A stretch of 64,000 nt of DNA, from contig JBAZOT010000003.1 in NCBI GenBank assembly GCA_041648575.1, positions 14,895 through 78,894 on the forward strand, read 5' to 3'. The position numbers and the translations under genes were made by a program. Below the pieces are notes generated by a model. The model was not told where the DNA came from. It ran no database searches and worked only from the letters and a program-made list of their open reading frames with translations. Origin of the DNA: Patescibacteria group bacterium. GTDB lineage: Bacteria; Patescibacteriota; Patescibacteriia; Veblenbacterales; UBA10138. Shown piece by piece: positions 5,753-61,614 of this stretch (its first letter is position 1; every line of letters begins with the position of its first letter).

Positions 5753-5786
5753 ACAAAAATATAAAATTTAAAAATAAAATGCAAAA

Positions 5787-6332
5787 TTAGATCTTTTGAA
5801 TTTGTAAAAAATCCAACTCTACTGGCGTTTCCCGTCCAAACATTGAAACCAATACTTTTACTTTACCCCGACCTTCGTCTACCTCGGATACCTTACCGTC
5901 AAAATCCTTAAAAGGCCCATCACTAATTTTTACTGCCATACCAACAGTCACATCCATTTTATAAGTTGGCTCTTCAATGCCCATTCTTTTTTGCAACGCC
6001 TTCATTTCTTCTTCTGAAACTGGAGTTGGAGTGGTGCCGCTACCAATAAATCCAGTAACATTTGGGGTATTACGCACCACATACCATGAATCATCAGTCA
6101 CCATCATTTCCACTAATACGTATCCTGGAAAAATTTTCTCTTCAACCACTTTACGCTTGCCATTTTTAATGCGAATCTTTTTTTCAGTGGGAATTAAAAT
6201 ATTAAAAATCTTATCACCCATATCCATTGATTCAATACGCTGCTTTAAATTGCGGGTAACATTTTCCTCATAACCAGAATAGGTATGTAGGGCATACCAA
6301 CGTCTACCTTGTTGTATTATCTGTCGCGGCAT
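5787..6332 (-). CDS. nusG: transcription termination/antitermination factor NusG
   Basis: RWYALHTYSGYEENV (NGN domain) and a C-terminal KOW domain. I prefer ATG 6330-6332 (MPRQ) over the TTG at 6344 in the ORF track, because that TTG lies inside the repeat element. Confidence 0.9.
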   Translation of the reverse strand: MPRQIIQQGRRWYALHTYSGYEENVTRNLKQRIESMDMGDKIFNILIPTEKKIRIKNGKRKVVEEKIFPGYVLVEMMVTDDSWYVVRNTPNVTGFIGSGTTPTPVSEEEMKALQKRMGIEEPTYKMDVTVGMAVKISDGPFKDFDGKVSEVDEGRGKVKVLVSMFGRETPVELDFLQIQKI

Positions 6333-6333
6333 A

Positions 6334-6481
6334 TCCAGTAACAATAACTTGACCTGCTAAAAATTAAGCGAGTCAAAAGTTTATTTAATAGTTAGATCGG
6401 TCTTGTTTAAAAAAGATAACATAGATTAATAGTATAGATAATTTCTATCAGCACGAGCTTAAGTCAAGTTTTGTTACTGGA
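6334..6481 (-). mobile_element. MITE-like element copy 1 (148 bp) with about 20-bp terminal inverted repeats and CATA flanking duplication
   Basis: The ends are TCCAGTAACAATAACTTGAC ... GTCAAGTTTTGTTACTGGA. CATA occurs at 6330-6333 and 6482-6485. A second copy lies at 51634-51774. Confidence 0.75.
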
Positions 6482-6487
6482 CATAAT

Positions 6488-6676
6488 TTATTTATATAAT
6501 AATTGCTGCAACCCTATATTAAAAATATAATCTAAGGCGCCTAAAAAAATAGCTACCCCCAAAGAAATACCAATCACCAACAAAGTATGTTGGGTAGTTT
6601 CTTTTTTGGTAGGCCAAACAACCCTTTTAAGTTCTTCAATTGATTGTTTAAAATAATTGGTTAATTTATTAGGCAT
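6488..6676 (-). CDS. secE: preprotein translocase subunit SecE
   Basis: 62 aa with VVWPTKKET followed by a single TM helix. Lies upstream of nusG. Confidence 0.8.
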   Translation of the reverse strand: MPNKLTNYFKQSIEELKRVVWPTKKETTQHTLLVIGISLGVAIFLGALDYIFNIGLQQLLYK

Positions 6677-12881: not shown

Positions 12882-12977
12882 GTAATTTCAAAATGTAAAA
12901 ATCAAAATGCAAAATGACAGATTAAACTTTAAAATTAATAAATAATTTTGATTTTTGATTTTTTAATTTTAAATTAA

Positions 12978-15727: not shown

Positions 15728-17170
15728 TTATTTAATTTTCTTAACTATACCTTTATTAGCGTCTACTTCCACCAAATCGCCATCTTTAAATAATAAAGTG
15801 GCATTATTAGTACCAACTATACAAGGAATCTTTAATTCCCTGGCAGTAATGGCAGCGTGACAAATCAAGCCGCCTTTATTAGTAACAATAGCCGCTGCTT
15901 TTCTCATAGCTGGTAATAAATCAGGACTAGTAGCTTGCGAAAGCAAAATATTACCGCGATTCATCTTTATCATATCTTTAGGTATTTGTATAATCTTTAC
16001 CACCCCTTTGACTTTTCCGGTATAAGCACATTGCCCCCTAGTTTCTTTGGATAAAGACTGTTCTTGTTGAATAATTAAGGAAGAAACATACTTTTTAGCT
16101 TGAGAATCAATCATCATCTGATTGCCTTGCTTATTAACTAAAAAACATGAAAAATGACGTCGTCTTTCTAACGCAGAAATATCTAGCTTCTTTTCCAGAA
16201 TAAACCCAGGCACCTCCCAAGGAAGAAGGAAAGTAAATATTTTCCAGTCATTCACACCTTGTTGTTTTGCAAGCAATCTCCACAGTGCCTCATATGAATA
16301 AAAGCTATGAGTCAAAAGGTCTTTACGTAAACCTTTCTGCCAAATTACGGTCTGGGCTAACTGAACCAGAAATCTCGCTCGATTAGTATAATTTAACTTA
16401 GCCATTAACTCCTGCTGTTGTTTTTTTATTTTATTAAGTTGCAGAGGTAAAGACAAATTAACATTTCCCCTACAGACAGTACCGAACTCTTTCTTAAATT
16501 CTTCAAATAAAATAACTGGACCTAAATATAAATAATCAAGCCAACAATAATTCCTATATAATTTTTTTAAAATTAAGGTGAGCCGATTTTTACTTAATGC
16601 TTTACGGCGGCTAGCTAATAAAGCTAACTTGTAATCTTTTTTTTGATGAAGACTTAATTTGGTAACTTGGCTCAATAATGTCCAATGTTTATTAAAATCC
16701 TTAGCAGAAGAGAATCCTCTCAATTCTTCCATGATTTTATTCGATAGATGATTTTTACCATCAATAATTAAACCGTTTACTATTACTCCACTCACTTGAT
16801 AGAGGTGTTGAAGATTACTAACTTTCATAAACTCCTTCGCTAAACTTGATCTGGATAATTTATCTAACGGTAAATTCCTAAACAACTTAGCGCTCTTAAA
16901 AAATTTATCAGCATAAAGGTTAATCTTATCGTATATCTTGGTACGCCATTTGTTATCATTTAACAAGCGATTAGCGGCAAAGTTGGCTGATTTATTAAAC
17001 TCTTGATCATCAAAAAAATAAGTGCACACACCTTTGTCCATCACTGCTATAACTTTGGTGATATAACTACCACCCCCTAATCGAGGAAAATCATGAACAA
17101 AGCCACGTCCATGGTACCCTAACAATAACCAATGGCCACTAAATATCCTGTCATAAATTAACAGAGCCAT
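15728..17170 (-). CDS. protein with a C-terminal PEP-utilising-enzyme mobile (swivelling phosphohistidine) domain
   Basis: Matches GKVKGVVKII...ATSPDLLPAMRKAAAIVTNKGGLICHAAITARELKIPCIVG. The N-terminal ~370 aa are unassigned. Confidence 0.6.
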   Translation of the reverse strand: MALLIYDRIFSGHWLLLGYHGRGFVHDFPRLGGGSYITKVIAVMDKGVCTYFFDDQEFNKSANFAANRLLNDNKWRTKIYDKINLYADKFFKSAKLFRNLPLDKLSRSSLAKEFMKVSNLQHLYQVSGVIVNGLIIDGKNHLSNKIMEELRGFSSAKDFNKHWTLLSQVTKLSLHQKKDYKLALLASRRKALSKNRLTLILKKLYRNYCWLDYLYLGPVILFEEFKKEFGTVCRGNVNLSLPLQLNKIKKQQQELMAKLNYTNRARFLVQLAQTVIWQKGLRKDLLTHSFYSYEALWRLLAKQQGVNDWKIFTFLLPWEVPGFILEKKLDISALERRRHFSCFLVNKQGNQMMIDSQAKKYVSSLIIQQEQSLSKETRGQCAYTGKVKGVVKIIQIPKDMIKMNRGNILLSQATSPDLLPAMRKAAAIVTNKGGLICHAAITARELKIPCIVGTNNATLLFKDGDLVEVDANKGIVKKIK

Positions 17171-24427: not shown

Positions 24428-25369
24428 TCATCCTTCCACCGCTACACGGCCGCCAGTGATATCTGCTAATTCCGTGGTAATTGAAGCTTGGCGCGCCTGG
24501 TTATAAGTTAGGGTTAATGAGGAAACCATATCGTCCGCTGCGTCAGAGGCATTGCGCATAGCCAACATTCTGGCTGAATGCTCCGAAGCATCAGATTCTA
24601 AAAGAGCTTGGTAAATTTGCACCTCAAGCAACCTGGGGAGCAAATCTTCCAGTACCTGATCTGGTGTTGGTTCAAATAAATATTCGTAATTATATAAATA
24701 CGACGGCTGGTACTTTTCTGACTGATTTGGTTTATCTTGATCCGGTATGCGCGCTTGACCTAAATCAGCATCTGCTTCAATTTCTATTGGCAGTAATTGT
24801 TTAATACGTGGTTTTTGTGCCATGGGAGAAATAAAATCCGTATATGCCATTACCACGCGATCATAATAACCACGCAAATAATCATCAATTAATAATTTGG
24901 CAATCGGAGTTACCTCGTCAATTCTGGTGGTAATGTCAGCTTTGGTAAACTCTGCCATGATAGTATGACCATGTCTAAACATAATGTCGCGACCACGCTT
25001 TCCTACAGCCACTAAATCAGCCTCTAGCTCAACCTGCTGACTGCGATGGCGTTCAATATATAAATTTGCTCTATTAGCCAACTGATGATTAAATCCACCG
25101 CATAATCCACGATTAGATGTAACTATCACCAACCCAATATGTTTGGTGGTTTCTCGACGATGCAATAACGGGTGGTGGGCAGGATCGGTGCGCCTAACTA
25201 GCTCCTGCAGCATTTCCCAGCCCAAATTAGCATAAGTACGCGTAGCTAAAACATTGGCTACTGCTTTTCTCATTTTAGCAGCCGACACCATTTCCATTGC
25301 TCGAGTTATTTGATTGGTGTTTTTTATGGAGCGTATTCGCCTTTTTATTTCGCGAGTAGCCTGGGGCAT
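24428..25369 (-). CDS. atpG: ATP synthase F1 gamma subunit
   Basis: 313 aa with N-terminal IKRRIRSIKNTNQITRAMEMVSAAKMRKA and C-terminal ITTELADITGG. Confidence 0.9.
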   Translation of the reverse strand: MPQATREIKRRIRSIKNTNQITRAMEMVSAAKMRKAVANVLATRTYANLGWEMLQELVRRTDPAHHPLLHRRETTKHIGLVIVTSNRGLCGGFNHQLANRANLYIERHRSQQVELEADLVAVGKRGRDIMFRHGHTIMAEFTKADITTRIDEVTPIAKLLIDDYLRGYYDRVVMAYTDFISPMAQKPRIKQLLPIEIEADADLGQARIPDQDKPNQSEKYQPSYLYNYEYLFEPTPDQVLEDLLPRLLEVQIYQALLESDASEHSARMLAMRNASDAADDMVSSLTLTYNQARQASITTELADITGGRVAVEG

Positions 25370-25404
25370 ATTAAAAATTTAAAATTTAAAAATCAAAATG
25401 AAAA

Positions 25405-26907
25405 CTAAACTATCATTTTTTTAACCTCTTCAACTGCTGTCTTAATTGCTTGTTCAATTTCTGGAGTTAATTCTTTTTTATCAGCAATCTGTTTTAATAC
25501 CGGCTGTCCTTTTAGATAATGATGGAATTTCTTTTCAAAATCAGAAATTTTCTCGACTGCTACATCATCCAGTAAACCATTAACTACCGAGTACAATATG
25601 GCGATTTGATTTGTAACGGACAAAGGTTCATACTGGCCTTGTTTTAAAATTTCAGTAATACGCTTACCTCGCTCTAATTGTTTCTTAGTTGTTTCGTCTA
25701 AATCAGAACCAAACTGGGCAAAAGCGGCGAGCTCTCTGTATTGGGCCACATCCAAACGCAATTTTCCAGCAACTTTTTTCATCGCCTTAACCTGTGCTTT
25801 TGAGCCAACGCGCGATACTGATAACCCCACATTAACTGCTGGCCTAATACCCTGATAAAATAAATCGCTTTCTAAATAGATCTGACCATCGGTAATGGAA
25901 ATAACATTAGTGGGAATATAAGCTGATACGTCGCCAGCTTGCGTTTCAATAATCGGCAAAGCTGTTAAACTTCCACCGCCATAATCTTTGTTGAGCTTAG
26001 CGGAACGTTCCAGTAACCGGGAATGTAAATAAAAAATATCTCCCGGATATGCCTCACGTCCTGGTGGCCTCCTTAGTAATAAAGAAATCTGCCTGTAGGC
26101 CACTGCATGTTTGGATAAATCATCATAAATCAACAACACATCTTTACCTTTATCCATAAAATATTCTCCCATTGCACATCCGGAGTATGGCGCTAAAAAC
26201 GTTAACGCCGCCGGATCCGAAGCACCAGCTACCACCACAGTGGTATAATCCATGGCGCCGAATTCCTGTAACTTGGCAACAATTTTTGCCACTTTTGATT
26301 CTTTTTGTCCAATGGCAACATAAACACAAAATACCTCCTGACCTTTTTGATTAATAATCGTATCAACCGCCAAAGCAGTTTTACCGGTTTGCCGGTCACC
26401 AATAATAAGCTCGCGCTGCCCGCGACCAATGGGAATCATTGAATCAATTGCTTTAATACCGGTTTGCAACGGGGTGTCGACTGATTGCCTAGTAATAACA
26501 CGTGGAGCAATTTTTTCTACTGGATAAAAAGTTTCAGCTTTAACTGGGCCTTTACCATCTAGTGGTTCGCCCAAGGGATCAACTACGCGACCGACAATTC
26601 CCTTGCCAGTAGGAACAGATAATATACGGCCAGTGGTTTTTACTGTGTCTCCTTGTTTAATCTCCACATAGTCCCCTAAAATCATGACTCCGACCATTGC
26701 TTCTTCTAAATTTAAAGCCACACCAAAAATTCCTTTGGGAAATTCAACCATTTCGCCTGATTGTACCGTCGCTAAACCAGAAATTTTAGCAATACCATCG
26801 CCTACCTCCACTACTGTACCGATTTTTTCGCCTGTTACCTTTCCTTCAAAATCAGCTAATTTGCTGGTTAATGATTTTAATAAACTTTCTTTGGTAATTT
26901 CAGTCAT
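25405..26907 (-). CDS. atpA: ATP synthase F1 alpha subunit
   Basis: Carries GDRQTGKTA (Walker A), [11 protein letters not shown] and the alpha signature [13 protein letters not shown]. Confidence 0.97.
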
Positions 26908-32711: not shown

Positions 32712-32749
32712 TAGTCATTTACCCTTTCGCGCGAAAGGGTAAATGACTA
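32712..32749. repeat. 38-bp perfect palindrome TAGTCATTTACCCTTTCGC|GCGAAAGGGTAAATGACTA
   Basis: Read directly from the sequence. It lies between the arsR-like stop and the promoter of the 240-aa gene. Confidence 0.8.
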
Positions 32750-32777: not shown

Positions 32778-33056
32778 TTAGCTAGTCTGACGGACTTGCT
32801 TAAGAAGCTGCTGCAACAAACTACTTAACCCCTCATCTAAACTATATAGACCTACGTATCCAAATTGCCTGCGTTCTAAAAACCCCACTTGCCGCAATAG
32901 CACTAAGTGTTTAGAGGTGGACTTAAATGATAGATGAATCGCCGTCGCAACGTCACCTACTGTCCGCTCTTTACCATCGGACAACAACCTTAGTATCTCC
33001 AGCCGCTTTCTCGCACCCAGCGCCCGGTAAACCTTTTCTAACTCTCGTAGACGCAT
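32778..33056 (-). CDS. ArsR/SmtB-family transcriptional regulator
   Basis: 92 aa with a winged HTH: LGARKRLEILRLLSDGKERTVGDVATAIHLSFKSTSKHLVLLRQVGFLERR. I see no obvious metal-binding Cys. Confidence 0.8.
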   Translation of the reverse strand: MRLRELEKVYRALGARKRLEILRLLSDGKERTVGDVATAIHLSFKSTSKHLVLLRQVGFLERRQFGYVGLYSLDEGLSSLLQQLLKQVRQTS

Positions 33057-33062
33057 GTTGGT

Positions 33063-33100
33063 AGTATATCATATTTACTGATTCGCGCGAAAGGGTAAAT
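33063..33100 (-). promoter_or_regulatory. leaderless arsR promoter (TGA TATACT, 6 nt from the ATG) overlapped by a degenerate copy of the TTTACCC..GGGTAAA palindrome
   Basis: ATTTACTGATTCGCGCGAAAGGGTAAAT (33073-33100) covers the -35 position and may be an operator. Confidence 0.45.
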
Positions 33101-49739: not shown

Positions 49740-51632
49740 TTATCTAACAACCACTCCTTTGCCTTGCGCGCCTAAATCATTATCCAGTTCTGTGGTAACT
49801 AATTTATCTGTAGCAATTAAATCTGCACCGCTATAAGCATCCCGAGCTGTGGCAGTGGTGGTTTTTACCAACACTAAAATTTTATCCGCATCTTGCTCTG
49901 CCGGTGTAATAGCTACTTCAAAAGACGCTTCTGGTTTATCAAATTTAAACCCTACGCCCGCAGGCAGACGATTTAATTCCCAACGCACTTCGCGAGTATT
50001 GGGATTATATGTTAATGGCTGGCCATGCGATACTGTCGTTTGTCCGGTCCAGGTTACATCTTGGGGTAAAGTAGTAGTAACTTCAACGTTGCTAGCCTCA
50101 TTAATAGTATTGGCTAATCTCCAAAAAATATTATAAGTGGTAGTGTTGCCTACTCGCGGCGGCAACTGTCCCGAGCCAATTTTTATCAACTGATCTGTGT
50201 AATACCTACCTTCTGTTTGAACTAATAATTGTGTATTAATCTTGGTAATTATAATATTTGATTCAGTAGTAACCGGCTGTAATTTACCACCAATCAATTG
50301 CTCGGCACTCGCCTTAACGCTGGTATTAAAACTATAAGGCGACATATTGTTAGGAGCAACACTTACAACTTTCAAGCGAAAATTAATACTGCCTTTGGTA
50401 CCAGGAGCAACTCTAGCTAAACTGGGCAACTCATTTTTTGTCCAAACCACTGCGTTTTCTGTCTCTTTAACATTAGTTGGCGTATCTGTTTGCCAAGAGG
50501 TCCAATCTAATAACTCGGAATTTAATTTGGTCTCTAACACTAAATTAGTTAAAGCAATTTCCCCTTCATTAGCATAACGCAATTCAAAATCAATTTGTTC
50601 CCCCCAATCAGCATAGCTTTTTAAAACTACCTGATTCGCAGTTAATGACAATGTTAAATGAGACTCAATTAACGTTACAGATATTTTCTTTTCTTCTTGA
50701 ATAGTAAAAGTATTATCGTCATTAATCACACCAATGGCTACAGAAAAATCCTGAATACCAGCACTAGCTGAAGTGGTAAACCTGCCGGTAAATTCCAGCT
50801 CGCCAACACTTTTGGCAGATAGGTCATCCAATTTCCATAAATTTATTTCGCCAATTACTGATTCTAATTTTGGAAGATCCAATTCGAAGCCGCTGGGGCT
50901 AATGAATTTTAATGCTAAATTCGGCAACGCCGCAGTAGAAGTATTATTATACTTAATTTTTAATGCCAAATCTTGATCAAAAGGTAATTGTGCAGGAGCT
51001 TCTAAATCTATGGTTACTACCGAAGCAATTAATTCTGTGGAAAAAACTGTCGTCTTGGCAAACTGTGCTTTAAAATTTTCCGGCTCATATGTAAAAACCG
51101 CGGCCATTTCCTTAATCTCGCCAACCTCACCAACCATTTGCCCGGTTATTACCAACTCTCCACTACCTTTGGCGTCAACTTGACCTAAGAGAAATCTAGT
51201 CTTGGCTTCATCATCAGCTGGTTTACTGGTTTCAGTTACGACAAAACCAGTCGGATAGCGAAAATTAACTTCCAAAAAATTTAAACCAACTCCCTGATCA
51301 TTATTCCAAGACAAAGTATAATTAATCATTTGCCCCGATGGCGCACTGACTGGACCAGATAATTTCACCTTAACCGCTTCTTCGCCAAATTTTGTATTCT
51401 GACCACTAAAAAAAACAAACCAAATGCCACCGACAATAATTACCACTAATAAAGTGGTCGTTAACCATAACCAACCACGCTGACGTGAAGCTTTTTTTCT
51501 TAGCACGCGAAAATCTTCAGGTGGATCTTGGCGATACATGCGCGCCAATTCACGCTCGGCAACTTCTGCAGTTAAAGGTGTTTTTTTTGATTTTGATAAA
51601 GTATCAAGAGGTGGCCTAGAAATATTAGACAT
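49740..51632 (-). CDS. large membrane-anchored surface protein with repeated beta-sandwich (DUF11/CARDB-like) modules
   Basis: N-terminal cytoplasmic tail, one TM helix (LWLTTTLLVVIIVGGIWFVFF), then about 550 aa rich in T/V/N. I prefer ATG 51630-51632 over the TTG inside the repeat. Confidence 0.6.
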   Translation of the reverse strand: MSNISRPPLDTLSKSKKTPLTAEVAERELARMYRQDPPEDFRVLRKKASRQRGWLWLTTTLLVVIIVGGIWFVFFSGQNTKFGEEAVKVKLSGPVSAPSGQMINYTLSWNNDQGVGLNFLEVNFRYPTGFVVTETSKPADDEAKTRFLLGQVDAKGSGELVITGQMVGEVGEIKEMAAVFTYEPENFKAQFAKTTVFSTELIASVVTIDLEAPAQLPFDQDLALKIKYNNTSTAALPNLALKFISPSGFELDLPKLESVIGEINLWKLDDLSAKSVGELEFTGRFTTSASAGIQDFSVAIGVINDDNTFTIQEEKKISVTLIESHLTLSLTANQVVLKSYADWGEQIDFELRYANEGEIALTNLVLETKLNSELLDWTSWQTDTPTNVKETENAVVWTKNELPSLARVAPGTKGSINFRLKVVSVAPNNMSPYSFNTSVKASAEQLIGGKLQPVTTESNIIITKINTQLLVQTEGRYYTDQLIKIGSGQLPPRVGNTTTYNIFWRLANTINEASNVEVTTTLPQDVTWTGQTTVSHGQPLTYNPNTREVRWELNRLPAGVGFKFDKPEASFEVAITPAEQDADKILVLVKTTTATARDAYSGADLIATDKLVTTELDNDLGAQGKGVVVR

Positions 51633-51633
51633 A

Positions 51634-51774
51634 CCCAGTAACAAAAACTTGACCTGCTAAAAATTAAGCGAGTCGAGATAATTAATAATAAAAGTTGGTT
51701 GGTTTATAAAAGCTGACATAAATTGATAATATAGATGATTTTTACCAGAGCTTAAGTCAAGTTTTGTTACTAGG
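51634..51774 (-). mobile_element. MITE-like element copy 2 (141 bp)
   Basis: The ends are CCCAGTAACAAAAACTTGAC ... GTCAAGTTTTGTTACTAGG. CATA occurs at 51630-33 and 51775-78. It has the same orientation relative to transcription as copy 1. Confidence 0.75.
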
Positions 51775-51779
51775 CATAT

Positions 51780-52529
51780 TTATAGAATACTACGTAAAAG
51801 TTTTAATGTATAGAGTTGTCGTCCTGCCTGTCCTTGGACATAATCAACCAAAAATCCTAAAAGTTCAGCTGGTAATTGACGATTATACGGTGGTTCCGCT
51901 CGTGTCGCTAGGGTGTGTAAATAACTTAAAGCGTCATCAGTTAATAAAAACAAACCACTGCTATCGATGATACAATTTTTATGATAAAAACCATGTTCTC
52001 TAAAACTAAACACCACGGGCGCTGCTAATTCACCTTGGCATTTTGGACACCTAGTAACTTGAATTGCTAGACCAGTAATTTTTAATATTTTATAAATAAA
52101 TCTGCCCAGATATGTTCTGGCTCGCTCACGCCAAGCCGGCTCATCTTTGGGAATATCTTTTAATTGGCTTAAATAATACCTTAGCGATTTTAATAATTCC
52201 GGTTCAGGCGCGCCTAAAGAAGTTAGCACATCAGTTATTTCCAAAAACGAAGTGCCTAAAATGGCGGTATTTAAATGATAAGGTGTTTTTAAAAAAATTC
52301 TTTTAAGTTCCGCGCCTGCTAATTTATCATATTTTTTCCCCGGTGCCACCTGTACCTGAACTTCACCAAAAATCACCAAATGTGGAGCTAATTTAGATAA
52401 AATTTTTCGCGAACTAGTAGCTACCGCCTCAACCTTACCCCGTCGCTCTGTAAAAATAGTATAAAGCCGATCATTTTGCCTATGACTTCTAGCGCGTAAA
52501 ACAATACCGGTAGTGGTATAAGTAGACAT
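51780..52529 (-). CDS. recO: DNA repair protein RecO
   Basis: N-terminal OB fold (TTGIVLRARSHRQNDRLYTIFT) and zinc finger CPKCQG...HKNC. Confidence 0.8.
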   Translation of the reverse strand: MSTYTTTGIVLRARSHRQNDRLYTIFTERRGKVEAVATSSRKILSKLAPHLVIFGEVQVQVAPGKKYDKLAGAELKRIFLKTPYHLNTAILGTSFLEITDVLTSLGAPEPELLKSLRYYLSQLKDIPKDEPAWRERARTYLGRFIYKILKITGLAIQVTRCPKCQGELAAPVVFSFREHGFYHKNCIIDSSGLFLLTDDALSYLHTLATRAEPPYNRQLPAELLGFLVDYVQGQAGRQLYTLKLLRSIL

Positions 52530-52539
52530 GTTTAAAAAG

Positions 52540-53022
52540 CTATTTTTTTTCTTCTCTTTCCTTTAATATTTCTTTAAGAGTGGCTAAAAGTAATTGTTCC
52601 CGATTAACCTGCTCTAATAGAGAAAACTCATAATTAGCTTTATCAGCTATATTTCTCCTCCGACCATGTTCTAGATCTTTTATTTCTTTTTTTATAAATT
52701 CATTAGAAGCGTTAATATATCTACCTTTAATATTTTTAATAAAGTTATCCCATTCTAATCTGATATTATCAATTTGTTTAGTAGTCGGCTCTAACCTTGT
52801 AGATCCATCTTCGGAAAATACTAATTTGGCGCCATCAGCTAATAATTCTTTGGTTTCTATTTCTTGTTCGATCACTATTTGTTCTTCGTCGGTGAATCCC
52901 TTACCTATTCCTTTTTCTTTAACGACCTCATCTCTTAATTCTTTCCAACTCCTTTTCTTATCTTTTGAAGTGTTTTGGACCAATTCTGGCGCCGGCGACA
53001 TTTCTCTTGAATTCATAAACAT
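52540..53022 (-). CDS. hypothetical charged protein
   Basis: 160 aa. Its start codon abuts the ileS stop (TGAATG). Confidence 0.5.
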   Translation of the reverse strand: MFMNSREMSPAPELVQNTSKDKKRSWKELRDEVVKEKGIGKGFTDEEQIVIEQEIETKELLADGAKLVFSEDGSTRLEPTTKQIDNIRLEWDNFIKNIKGRYINASNEFIKKEIKDLEHGRRRNIADKANYEFSLLEQVNREQLLLATLKEILKEREEKK

Positions 53023-60593: not shown

Positions 60594-60700
60594 CATGAAG
60601 TATATGCTAGCAAATTAATACGCCATGAAGTTGTATAAAGAAGTAAATACTTCTTGGCTCGCCATGAAGTTATGCGAATAAAATGAGCATATACTTCATG
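60594..60700. repeat. cluster of CATGAAGT/ACTTCATG repeats abutting the tmRNA 3' end
   Basis: A 15-bp inverted repeat CATGAAGTATATGCT (60594-608) pairs with AGCATATACTTCATG (60686-700). The direct repeat CGCCATGAAGTT occurs twice, and there is an inner hairpin AGAAGTA-AA-TACTTCT. Confidence 0.6.
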
Positions 60701-61081
60701 GTGGAGATGGCGGGAATTACACCCGCGTCTAAGACAATTAACTTTACCCTTCTACAAACTTAGTCTGATTAATTTTGACAGAAGTCAAATCAGACCAAAG
60801 CCCCTGTCAATCTGTCCTAAGTAATGTCGGCCTAAGCACTAGAACAATACTTAAACCCTGCTCGATAAATGACGCTCTATAAGACTATCGAGATCGTCTA
60901 ATAGAACGGCCTCTGCTTAAATTAAGCAAAAGCTGGTGCTAGTGTCAAAGTGCTAAAAGCAGCTTTGGCGCGAGCTACAAATGATTTGGCATTTGTGAAG
61001 TGTGATGCTTTTATTACGCAGACACATCAACTGCGGTCTGCCAGACAAAGATCACTGCCTTATCGATTGTTAAACATCCCC
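60699..61081 (-). ncRNA. ssrA: tmRNA (transfer-messenger RNA)
   Basis: The 5' GGGGATG pairs with the 3' CATCTCC-A-CCA, including a G3.U pair. T-arm GCGGG-TGTAATT-CCCGC. An internal tag frame ends ...LAPAFA-TAA with the stop inside hairpin GCTTAA-TT-TAAGC. Adjacent to smpB. Confidence 0.85.
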
Positions 61082-61167: not shown

Positions 61168-61614
61168 TTAATATTTTAACGAGCGTCTAATTTCTCTATT
61201 AACTTCTCTTTTTTTAATAGCTACTCTTTTATCATATTTATTCTTGCCCACAGCCACAGCAATCTCTACCTTTACCATACCGTGAGTAGTATACACTGAA
61301 ATTGGAACAATTGTCAAGCCTTTAACCCTGCCTTTACCTAATAAATAAGAAAGTTCTTTTTGATGCAAAAGTAATTTGCGATCACGCTTTGGCTCGTAAT
61401 TTTTTTGCACACCTCGGGCTGGTGCATAAGGCGCAATATGAGCGCCCACCAACCATAATTCACCCTGTTTGGGAATAACATAACTGCCTTGCAAATTAAT
61501 GCTACCGCGTTTAGCAGATTTCACTTCTGCGCCCTGCAATACCAAACCAGCTTCAAATTTCTCCTGAATATTGAAGTTAAATAGAGCTTTTTTATTGTCA
61601 GCTAAATGAGGCAT
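61168..61614 (-). CDS. smpB: SsrA-binding protein SmpB
   Basis: 148 aa with KFEAGLVLQGAEVKS and RKLLLHQKEL motifs. Confidence 0.95.
   Translation of the reverse strand: MPHLADNKKALFNFNIQEKFEAGLVLQGAEVKSAKRGSINLQGSYVIPKQGELWLVGAHIAPYAPARGVQKNYEPKRDRKLLLHQKELSYLLGKGRVKGLTIVPISVYTTHGMVKVEIAVAVGKNKYDKRVAIKKREVNREIRRSLKY

Follow-up and report, generated by a model that had tools for sequence, protein, structure and literature searches.

A miniature inverted-repeat element family found largely at start codons in a single polarity in Patescibacteria, with one copy probably kept as a gene leader

The stretch analyzed here, referred to as the window, comprises 64,000 nt of a Patescibacteria group bacterium (assembly GCA_041648575.1, contig JBAZOT010000003.1, positions 14,895 to 78,894 of the forward strand). 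Within it, a 141-bp non-coding element (51634–51774) lies between recO and a gene for a surface protein of the DUF11 type. Both genes are on the minus strand. The recO gene (51780–52529; 249 aa, Pfam RecO_N and RecO_C) ends with a TAA stop at 51782–51780, 1 nt ahead of the duplication that borders the element, and the gene for the membrane-anchored DUF11/DUF7619 surface protein (49740–51632; 630 aa) follows directly downstream of the element. On the plus strand, the element is flanked by CATA on both sides (51630–51633 and 51775–51778). It begins with the terminal arm CCCAGTAACAAAAACTTGAC (51634–51653), continues through 102 nt of A/T-rich interior (51654–51755) and closes with the other arm, GTCAAGTTTTGTTACTAGG (51756–51774). 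The size, inverted-repeat ends and flanks are as an earlier note on this stretch, made from the letters alone, had described them.

Read on the gene strand, the junction is recO TAA-A-TATG[element]TATG-TCT. The upstream copy of the target-site duplication, TATG (51775–51778, minus strand), adjoins the recO stop, and its ATG (51777–51775) opens a mini open reading frame (ORF), ATG CCT AGT AAC AAA ACT TGA (MPSNKT*; 51757–51777, minus strand), a by-product of the duplicated ATG and the arm sequence. Next come, all on the minus strand, the short 5′ terminal inverted repeat CCTAGTAACAAAACTTGAC (51756–51774), a variable A/T-rich interior (51675–51755), an asymmetric conserved block on the downstream-gene side (51654–51674; CTGCTAAAAATTAAGCGAGTC on the plus strand, GACTCGCTTAATTTTTAGCAG on the gene strand) and the long 3′ terminal inverted repeat GTCAAGTTTTTGTTACTGGG (51634–51653), which is one base longer than the short arm and abuts the start codon. 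Immediately 5′ of the long arm, this block is predicted to fold into a small hairpin whose loop is A/U-rich. The downstream copy of the duplication (TATG, 51630–51633, minus strand) recreates the true start of the DUF11 gene (ATG, 51632–51630), and so both genes at the site are intact. The element thus has terminal inverted repeats of 19 and 20 nt and a 4-bp direct repeat, CATA on the plus strand and TATG on the gene strand. Removal of the element and one TATG gives back TAA-AT-ATG, as the earlier note had proposed. Its length of 634 aa for the downstream gene is corrected here to 630 aa, as the longer ORF starts at a TTG inside the element and orthologues begin at the ATG of the duplication.

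Copy 1, the other element of the window, occupies 6330–6485 on the minus strand with its duplications (CATA 6330–6333, element 6334–6481, CATA 6482–6485). It separates secE (6488–6676; stop at 6488) from nusG (5787–6332; ATG 6332–6330), and its mini-ORF reads MSSNKT*. The two copies have a 45-nt stretch in common at one end and a 34-nt stretch at the opposite end, with interiors that are ~70% identical. The block at 51654–51674, which as noted before faces the downstream gene, is 100% identical in copy 1 (6354–6374). Arm and block each occur twice in the window, compared with 0.07 and 0.01 occurrences expected, so the matches between copies are not chance. Beyond CATA, the sequence is unrelated between the two copies, therefore no segmental duplication is involved and the earlier reading of two independent insertions is upheld. 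The two copies do share an orientation; with 62 of the 68 window genes on the minus strand, this is weak alone and reaches significance only with the further copies described below.

Comparison with related contigs showed the element to be present at some orthologous sites and absent from others. In L018 (GCA_964530635.1), whose RecO is 89% identical, the recO junction is empty and reads TAG-TTA-TATG-GCT, with a single TATG. The junction is likewise empty in L019, the 78% relative, while L017 (GCA_043806155.1), a 90% relative, has an element at the same position. Identities of IleRS, ArgRS and RecO make the window and L017 sisters with L018 as the outgroup, so the simplest history would be one insertion in the common ancestor of the window and L017, and these comparisons put the recO-site copy before the split of the two lineages. 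The secE–nusG junction is empty in three relatives (L024–L028; NusG 91–93% identical), each with T-ATG directly after secE, and the window itself holds the empty counterpart of an insertion before ileS in L018. From this presence/absence polymorphism at the recO, secE–nusG and ileS sites, as read in the contigs, the element is mobile and a real MITE (miniature inverted-repeat transposable element), in line with the earlier assignment of a MITE with a 4-bp target duplication at a stop–start junction. The high conservation and the stable predicted structure would also suit a segmental duplication, or a cis-regulatory RNA of ancestral origin upstream of these genes, but a non-mobile origin is refuted by empty orthologous sites with a single TATG. 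It is also at odds with the unrelated flanks and downstream genes, the locus-specific direct repeats and the lack of an Rfam family, and we regard it as very hard to credit. An ENA contig of 101 kb and a Logan contig also carry the recO/DUF11 locus, and NCBI annotates its RecO protein as belonging to a metagenome-assembled genome of the Patescibacteria group. Near the syntenic region, L019 carries at 1–1127 and 16060–16296 a reverse transcriptase with a bAvd accessory gene, of the diversity-generating-retroelement type, and a Y1 transposase fragment.

Scanning JGI metagenome contigs for the paired-arm pattern gave 14 loci, 13 of them real elements with the same ends; one locus, L005, lies inside coding-looking sequence and was rejected as a chance match. 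Walks through relatives added one element in L029 and three in L018; the latter are from related subfamilies whose arms differ but are complementary within each element. Collapsing identical loci left 16 independent insertions, in about four subfamilies and at least eight contig lineages. All were found on contigs of the candidate phyla radiation (CPR) type, and as far as seen the family is confined to Patescibacteria/CPR genomes. Exact-pattern scans of a species-representative genome collection with the right arm and the conserved block gave no match, the host and its close kin not being represented there with these sequences. A scan of viral contigs returned one match, without a partner arm, that was treated as chance; blastn against plasmids and phages returned nothing relevant, and extension of the source contig by ~20 kb revealed no third copy. 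At gathering and permissive Rfam thresholds, the element gave only sub-threshold generic-hairpin matches, the sole gathering-level match being a transfer-messenger RNA (tmRNA) elsewhere in the window.

The members have the features of a MITE: a size below ~500 bp, no transposase gene, terminal inverted repeats, a locus-specific duplication, dispersed copies and presence/absence polymorphism. Elements measure 140–158 bp, except one of 290 bp owing to a nested insert, and contain only short, non-conserved ORFs. In every copy the arms are 19 and 20 nt long and complementary to the very tips. The duplications, TATG, CATG, ATGA, TTAT and TTGA, each match on both sides of their own locus, although at only three of four positions in L004a, L004b, L018a and L029. 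MITEs are common, but literature searches found none described in Patescibacteria and none described as start-codon-directed.

The individual insertions show where the family resides. A TATG duplication accompanies copy 1 before nusG (w1), the recO/DUF11 copy (w2, the same insertion as in L017) and the elements at the rplR/rpsE junction (L003), before ruvA (L010), before greA (L012) and before ileS (L018c). The element before ligT (L007) has CATG, the one before an SH3-domain gene (L004b) CATG/TATG, and L006 lies exactly on an overlapping ATGA stop/start, which it duplicates. Slightly displaced duplications are found before rplT (L018a, TTAT/TATG), argS (L018b, TTAT, the ATG being formed as AT+G) and secE (L029, TTAT/TATG). 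L008a and L008b belong to a tandem array of three elements with single TATGs between them, their duplication being TATG. This trio (L008:2713–3171) consists of one element of one subfamily and two identical copies of another, in the same polarity before one gene. The two insertions away from a start are L004a, 6 nt ahead of the stop codon of a histidine-kinase gene, where the arm supplies CAG TAA (duplication TTGG/TTGA), and L016, which interrupts the −35 box of the uvrA promoter (TTGACT-N17-TATCAT; duplication TTGA). The L029 element (546–686), on the secE start codon, represents a more distant subfamily with arms TCCAGTAATACAACTTTGC / GCAAAGTTGCTATACTGGA. Since the nhmmer profile of the main family missed it, the superfamily is probably broader than sampled here. 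The nested insert of L018b (L018:4935–5085) is GC-rich, ~150 nt long and placed between TTGAC repeats; within this A/T-rich lineage, two relatives have similar GC-rich blocks upstream of argS (L017:2600–3000 and L018:4600–4830). Neither the insert nor the blocks have an Rfam match, and the insert may be another mobile or structured element.

A common architecture underlies the copies. On the gene strand, the family 5′ arm reads CCCAGTAACAAAACTTGAC and is followed by the variable A/T-rich interior. An incomplete internal copy of the inner arm, reading AACTT or, in the two copies of the window, TTGAC, separates the interior from the small hairpin with its A/U-rich loop. Metagenome copies have this hairpin as CTTGC-TAAATTTTG-GCAAG; in the subfamilies of L018 it is CTCGC...GCGAG, a double change from T-A to C-G. 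The 3′ arm, GTCAAGTT-N-TTGTTACTGGG, has one base more than the 5′ arm, and the ATG-containing duplication follows directly. This anatomy also bears on IS200/IS605-type single-strand transposition, in which a palindrome-associated element would owe its strand and polarity bias to the mechanism itself. Strict polarity, insertion beside a short motif and the Y1 transposase fragment of L019 are in keeping with such an origin. However, that family, which has subterminal hairpins and inserts 3′ of a fixed tetranucleotide, has neither terminal inverted repeats nor a target duplication, while the copies here have 19–20-nt repeats and locus-specific, variable 4-bp duplications. IS200/IS605-type transposition was rejected on these grounds and is extremely improbable.

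Each of the 16 insertions points the same way as the gene downstream of it, with its long arm next to that gene and its short arm on the upstream side. The polarity of 15 out of 15 corresponds to a two-sided P = 6e-5, and L029 is the sixteenth with the same polarity. At 13 of 15 loci, duplication and start codon overlap (TATG, CATG, ATGA, TTAT-G). For the genes behind the elements, which include nusG, rpsE, ruvA, greA, ligT, rplT, argS, ileS, secE and others, Pfam or orthologues were used to check identities and N-termini. Were all non-disruptive 4-nt sites equally likely targets, 0.8% of sites would qualify, giving P ~1e-23 for the 12 of 14 loci known before L029. Under the most favorable null, a strict TATG target with coding insertions purged, 33–49% of available TATGs are starts, and P for 8 of 8 is 1.5e-4 to 3e-3. 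As judged from the junctions, the family is shown to insert at start codons or within one nucleotide of that register. Target specificity or selection on polarity, as the earlier note argued from two copies, holds for the larger set, and the random targets and orientations that it named as the contrary outcome did not appear when further copies were tested. Two confounders apply to polarity relative to the gene: polarity with respect to an asymmetric target and, in the window, the direction of replication. Mechanistic targeting and selection would both fit the target and polarity bias.

A purely selfish MITE could generate this pattern. It would recognize a sequence- and orientation-specific T-A-T-G-like site, the start bias would come from TATG being the usual context of starts in such compact, A/T-rich genomes together with purging, and conservation would come from gene conversion or re-insertion. 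In the window, 44 of 68 starts are TATG, and about half of the non-disruptive TATG sites are start codons. The L008 tandem arrays with their single shared TATG and the neighboring copies of L004 look like repeat insertions into a preferred sequence, the two non-start insertions indicate that a start codon is not required, and the asymmetry of the ends may merely mirror the layout of transposase-binding sites. Against this, 8 of 8 TATG insertions at starts remain improbable even under the null most favorable to it. The duplication register also shifts by one nucleotide around the ATG (TATG, ATGA, TTAT-G) and includes CATG, and the two non-start insertions use TTGA, not TATG, so a fixed tetranucleotide target is an incomplete explanation. 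The purely selfish account is possible, although we find it doubtful; its remaining points concern the conservation of the recO-site copy.

The copies of the window and L017 at the recO site are 86.5% identical overall. The 5′ arm region is 96%, the interior 86%, and the block with the long arm 95% identical, the block itself being unchanged. In the same pair, recO, ileS, argS and the DUF11 gene are only 47–51% identical at four-fold degenerate sites (random expectation, 28%). Among control spacers, non-functional ones are 44–58% and promoters and leaders 83–97% identical. With a simple exponential correction, and for this one orthologous pair, the element changes at ~one fifth of the four-fold-site rate. 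The interiors of the two recO-site copies are 86% identical compared with 69–74% to copy 1, which supports their orthology. The L017 copy has TTAAG in place of the terminal CTGGG, a decay that leaves the 38 nt next to it without change. Such decay would be expected if mobility had been lost and something else kept, and it would also weaken pairing at the start codon. Slow evolution of the recO-site copy, on these alignments, would mean either constraint or conversion from other copies. Identical tracts of 38–45 nt between copies would permit the gene conversion on which the selfish account relies, but the interior, not needed for transposition, is kept at 86% between orthologues while the transposition-critical tip has decayed in L017.

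The host genome provides the setting in which such a copy would act. The window has 35–40% G+C and is ~90% coding. By a loose criterion, a Shine-Dalgarno-like motif precedes 17 of 68 genes, and 46 of 68 starts have a T at position −1. Many operon-first genes have a −10 box, then 6–9 nt, then the ATG (for example, upstream of 17889, 30649, 33056 and 7982), which suggests that leaderless or near-leaderless expression is widespread. With the essential genes nusG, rpsE, argS and ileS directly behind elements, the observed polarity must permit expression.

RNA folding predicts that the arms form a ~20–22 bp stem extending into the duplication (z about −5). When the 3′ half is folded alone, a local hairpin is predicted in all 17 copies, with the last ~18 nt and the AUG unpaired. 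The element is a non-autonomous terminal-inverted-repeat transposon, a MITE, that enters start-codon junctions in one polarity, and we consider a reading probable in which the recO-site copy was later kept as a gene leader. At the recO site the element entered a T|ATG junction, with a staggered duplication of 4 bp; a DDE-type transposase supplied in trans would make the 4-bp staggered cuts. The inserted element would be co-transcribed with the operon mRNA, and its arms would pair so that the base of the stem sets the recO stop codon beside the real AUG, the first bases of the real start region being paired. The stem would be melted by any ribosome that terminates on recO or translates the 6-codon mini-ORF of the 5′ arm, and the opened 3′ half could refold as the local hairpin, leaving the last ~18 nt and the AUG free. 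Stop–start coupling would thus be preserved in a Shine-Dalgarno-poor genome that uses unstructured A/U-rich start regions. Modeled this way, the co-opted copy may act as a hairpin leader that keeps this coupling. Such a tolerated or useful arrangement would exist in one polarity only and could account for both the polarity and the later conservation.

Several observations weigh against this reading as a whole. Two of the insertions, L004a and L016, are not at starts. The conservation argument comes from one orthologous pair only, and gene conversion through the identical tracts could mimic it. Arm complementarity, the internal arm-like repeat and the covarying hairpin can be explained equally well as transposase-binding sites in DNA. 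The upstream ATG and mini-ORF are missing from L018a, L018b and L029, where the duplication does not contain the full ATG, so the mini-ORF cannot be essential to any function. Five or six single-arm substitutions that give only G-U pairs on the gene strand were not used as evidence for an RNA stem, because strand-biased C-to-T and A-to-G mutation of the leading or coding strand fits them equally and L017 has two C·A mismatches. Finally, the window, the fetched loci and the genome, plasmid, phage and viral collections, in which no dedicated search for it was made, yielded neither an autonomous element nor a transposase bearing these ends, so the chemistry of transposition is only inferred from the inverted repeats and the duplication. 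A conserved peptide from an internal ATG was also considered. The 13–23-aa ORFs vary in length and sequence, and the orthologous copies differ by four non-synonymous and two synonymous codon changes; coding was rejected.

The element could also act as a mobile promoter or translation-initiation cassette that drives the downstream gene without regard to upstream signals. Its long-arm side would then bear either a sigma-70-type promoter pointing outward, with the TAAATT of the block as −10, or an A/U-rich enhancer of the S1 type. In six metagenome copies, TTCACA/TTGACC-N15-16-TGc-TAAATT ends 26–28 nt before the ATG, and an outward promoter is plausible for these from their sequence. The TAAATT −10 resembles flank host promoters (TGCTAAAAT, TGCTACAAT), the triple array of L008 sets its gene ~460 nt from its own promoter, and Correia elements are a precedent for promoter donation (PMC2649163). 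However, neither of the window copies has the motif pair, nor do L017, L003, L006, L008b, L010 and L018a, and promoter-like matches are equally common on the opposite strand of these A/T-rich elements. The window copies also lie inside operons, where no promoter is needed. As an explanation of the family, the cassette is therefore improbable. A separate possibility is that the transposition machinery recognizes the transcription or translation start junction itself, not a fixed tetranucleotide, and installs in one polarity a two-state RNA hairpin that joins the old start context to the real AUG. The real start would be unmasked by upstream termination or mini-ORF translation, with fixed copies kept by selection in Shine-Dalgarno-poor CPR genomes. 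Such a start-site-homing mobile leader would be a bacterial analogue of structure-mediated coupling or shunting, and we think it unlikely in this full form.

Short non-coding repeats near genes are known from other bacteria. The Correia elements of Neisseria (CREE/NEMIS) are ~100–155 bp, non-coding and co-transcribed, form RNA hairpins from their inverted repeats and can alter expression of their neighbors (PMC2649163). Like the CPR family, they are small non-coding elements with terminal inverted repeats that are dispersed beside genes. They show no sequence similarity to it, however, and duplicate TA, whereas the duplication of the CPR family is 4 bp long and in most cases includes the start codon. 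Correia elements also occur in both orientations and in hundreds of copies per genome, in contrast to a fixed polarity and two copies in 84 kb here. Membership among them was rejected, as the 26-bp Correia repeat and the TA duplication are lacking, the ends reading CCCAGTAACAAAACTTGAC and the duplication being 4 bp. The ERIC/IRU repeats of enterobacteria and Yersinia resemble the family as imperfect palindromes of ~127 bp in transcribed intergenic regions of operons. De Gregorio et al. reportedly found in 2005 that what ERIC does to the mRNA depends on which way it lies with respect to transcription. ERIC/IRU lack sequence similarity, belong to another host phylum and are not reported to have start-codon siting or a single polarity.

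Rickettsia palindromic elements are small palindromic mobile elements of reduced genomes whose insertions are compatible with the function of the genes hit (PMC10969869). These too have no sequence similarity to the CPR family; they lie in frame inside ORFs and are translated, whereas the CPR family lies outside ORFs and duplicates a start codon. IS1397 and ISKpn1 are site-specific, autonomous insertion sequences that target REP and recognize a palindromic DNA repeat. They share with the family the use of one narrow class of intergenic site instead of random ones, but in the CPR family the recurrent feature is the gene start and no transposase is known. What distinguishes the CPR family from these analogues is its single polarity and a 4-bp duplication that carries the start codon. 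We know of no other MITE with insertions almost exclusively on start codons in one polarity.

Other features of the window were recorded alongside the element. Between ileS and recO, a 160-aa ORF (52540–53022, minus strand) has no significant Pfam family, its sole match, DIRP, being below the curated cutoff; it is 55% identical to its L017 orthologue compared with 78–90% for neighboring genes. A ~30-nt A/T-rich repeat (AAAAATTTAAAATTTAAAAATCAAAATG on the plus strand) stands at 5755–5789, 12882–12913 and 25373–25407, directly upstream of three minus-strand starts, those of rplK, pheT and the gene at 24428–25369. Two 28-nt perfect or near-perfect palindromes (ATTTACCCTTTCGCGCGAAAGGGTAAAT; 32717–32744 and 33073–33100) surround a small ORF (32778–33056). 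The tmRNA gene (Rfam, 97.5 bits) adjoins smpB, the two occupying 60699–61081 and 61168–61614 on the minus strand.

For annotation, the family means that gene callers extend ORFs into elements, giving 634 instead of 630 aa for the DUF11 gene and 578 instead of 569 aa for argS of L018. If the insertion bias is mechanistic, it would point to a transposase with an unusual target choice. If it is selective, it would show which insertions are tolerable to a minimal, Shine-Dalgarno-poor and partly leaderless genome. Elements before the essential genes nusG, rpsE, argS, ileS and secE, together with one copy that evolves ~five times slower than silent sites, suggest that these organisms, which are not yet open to genetic study, have taken mobile DNA into their expression signals.

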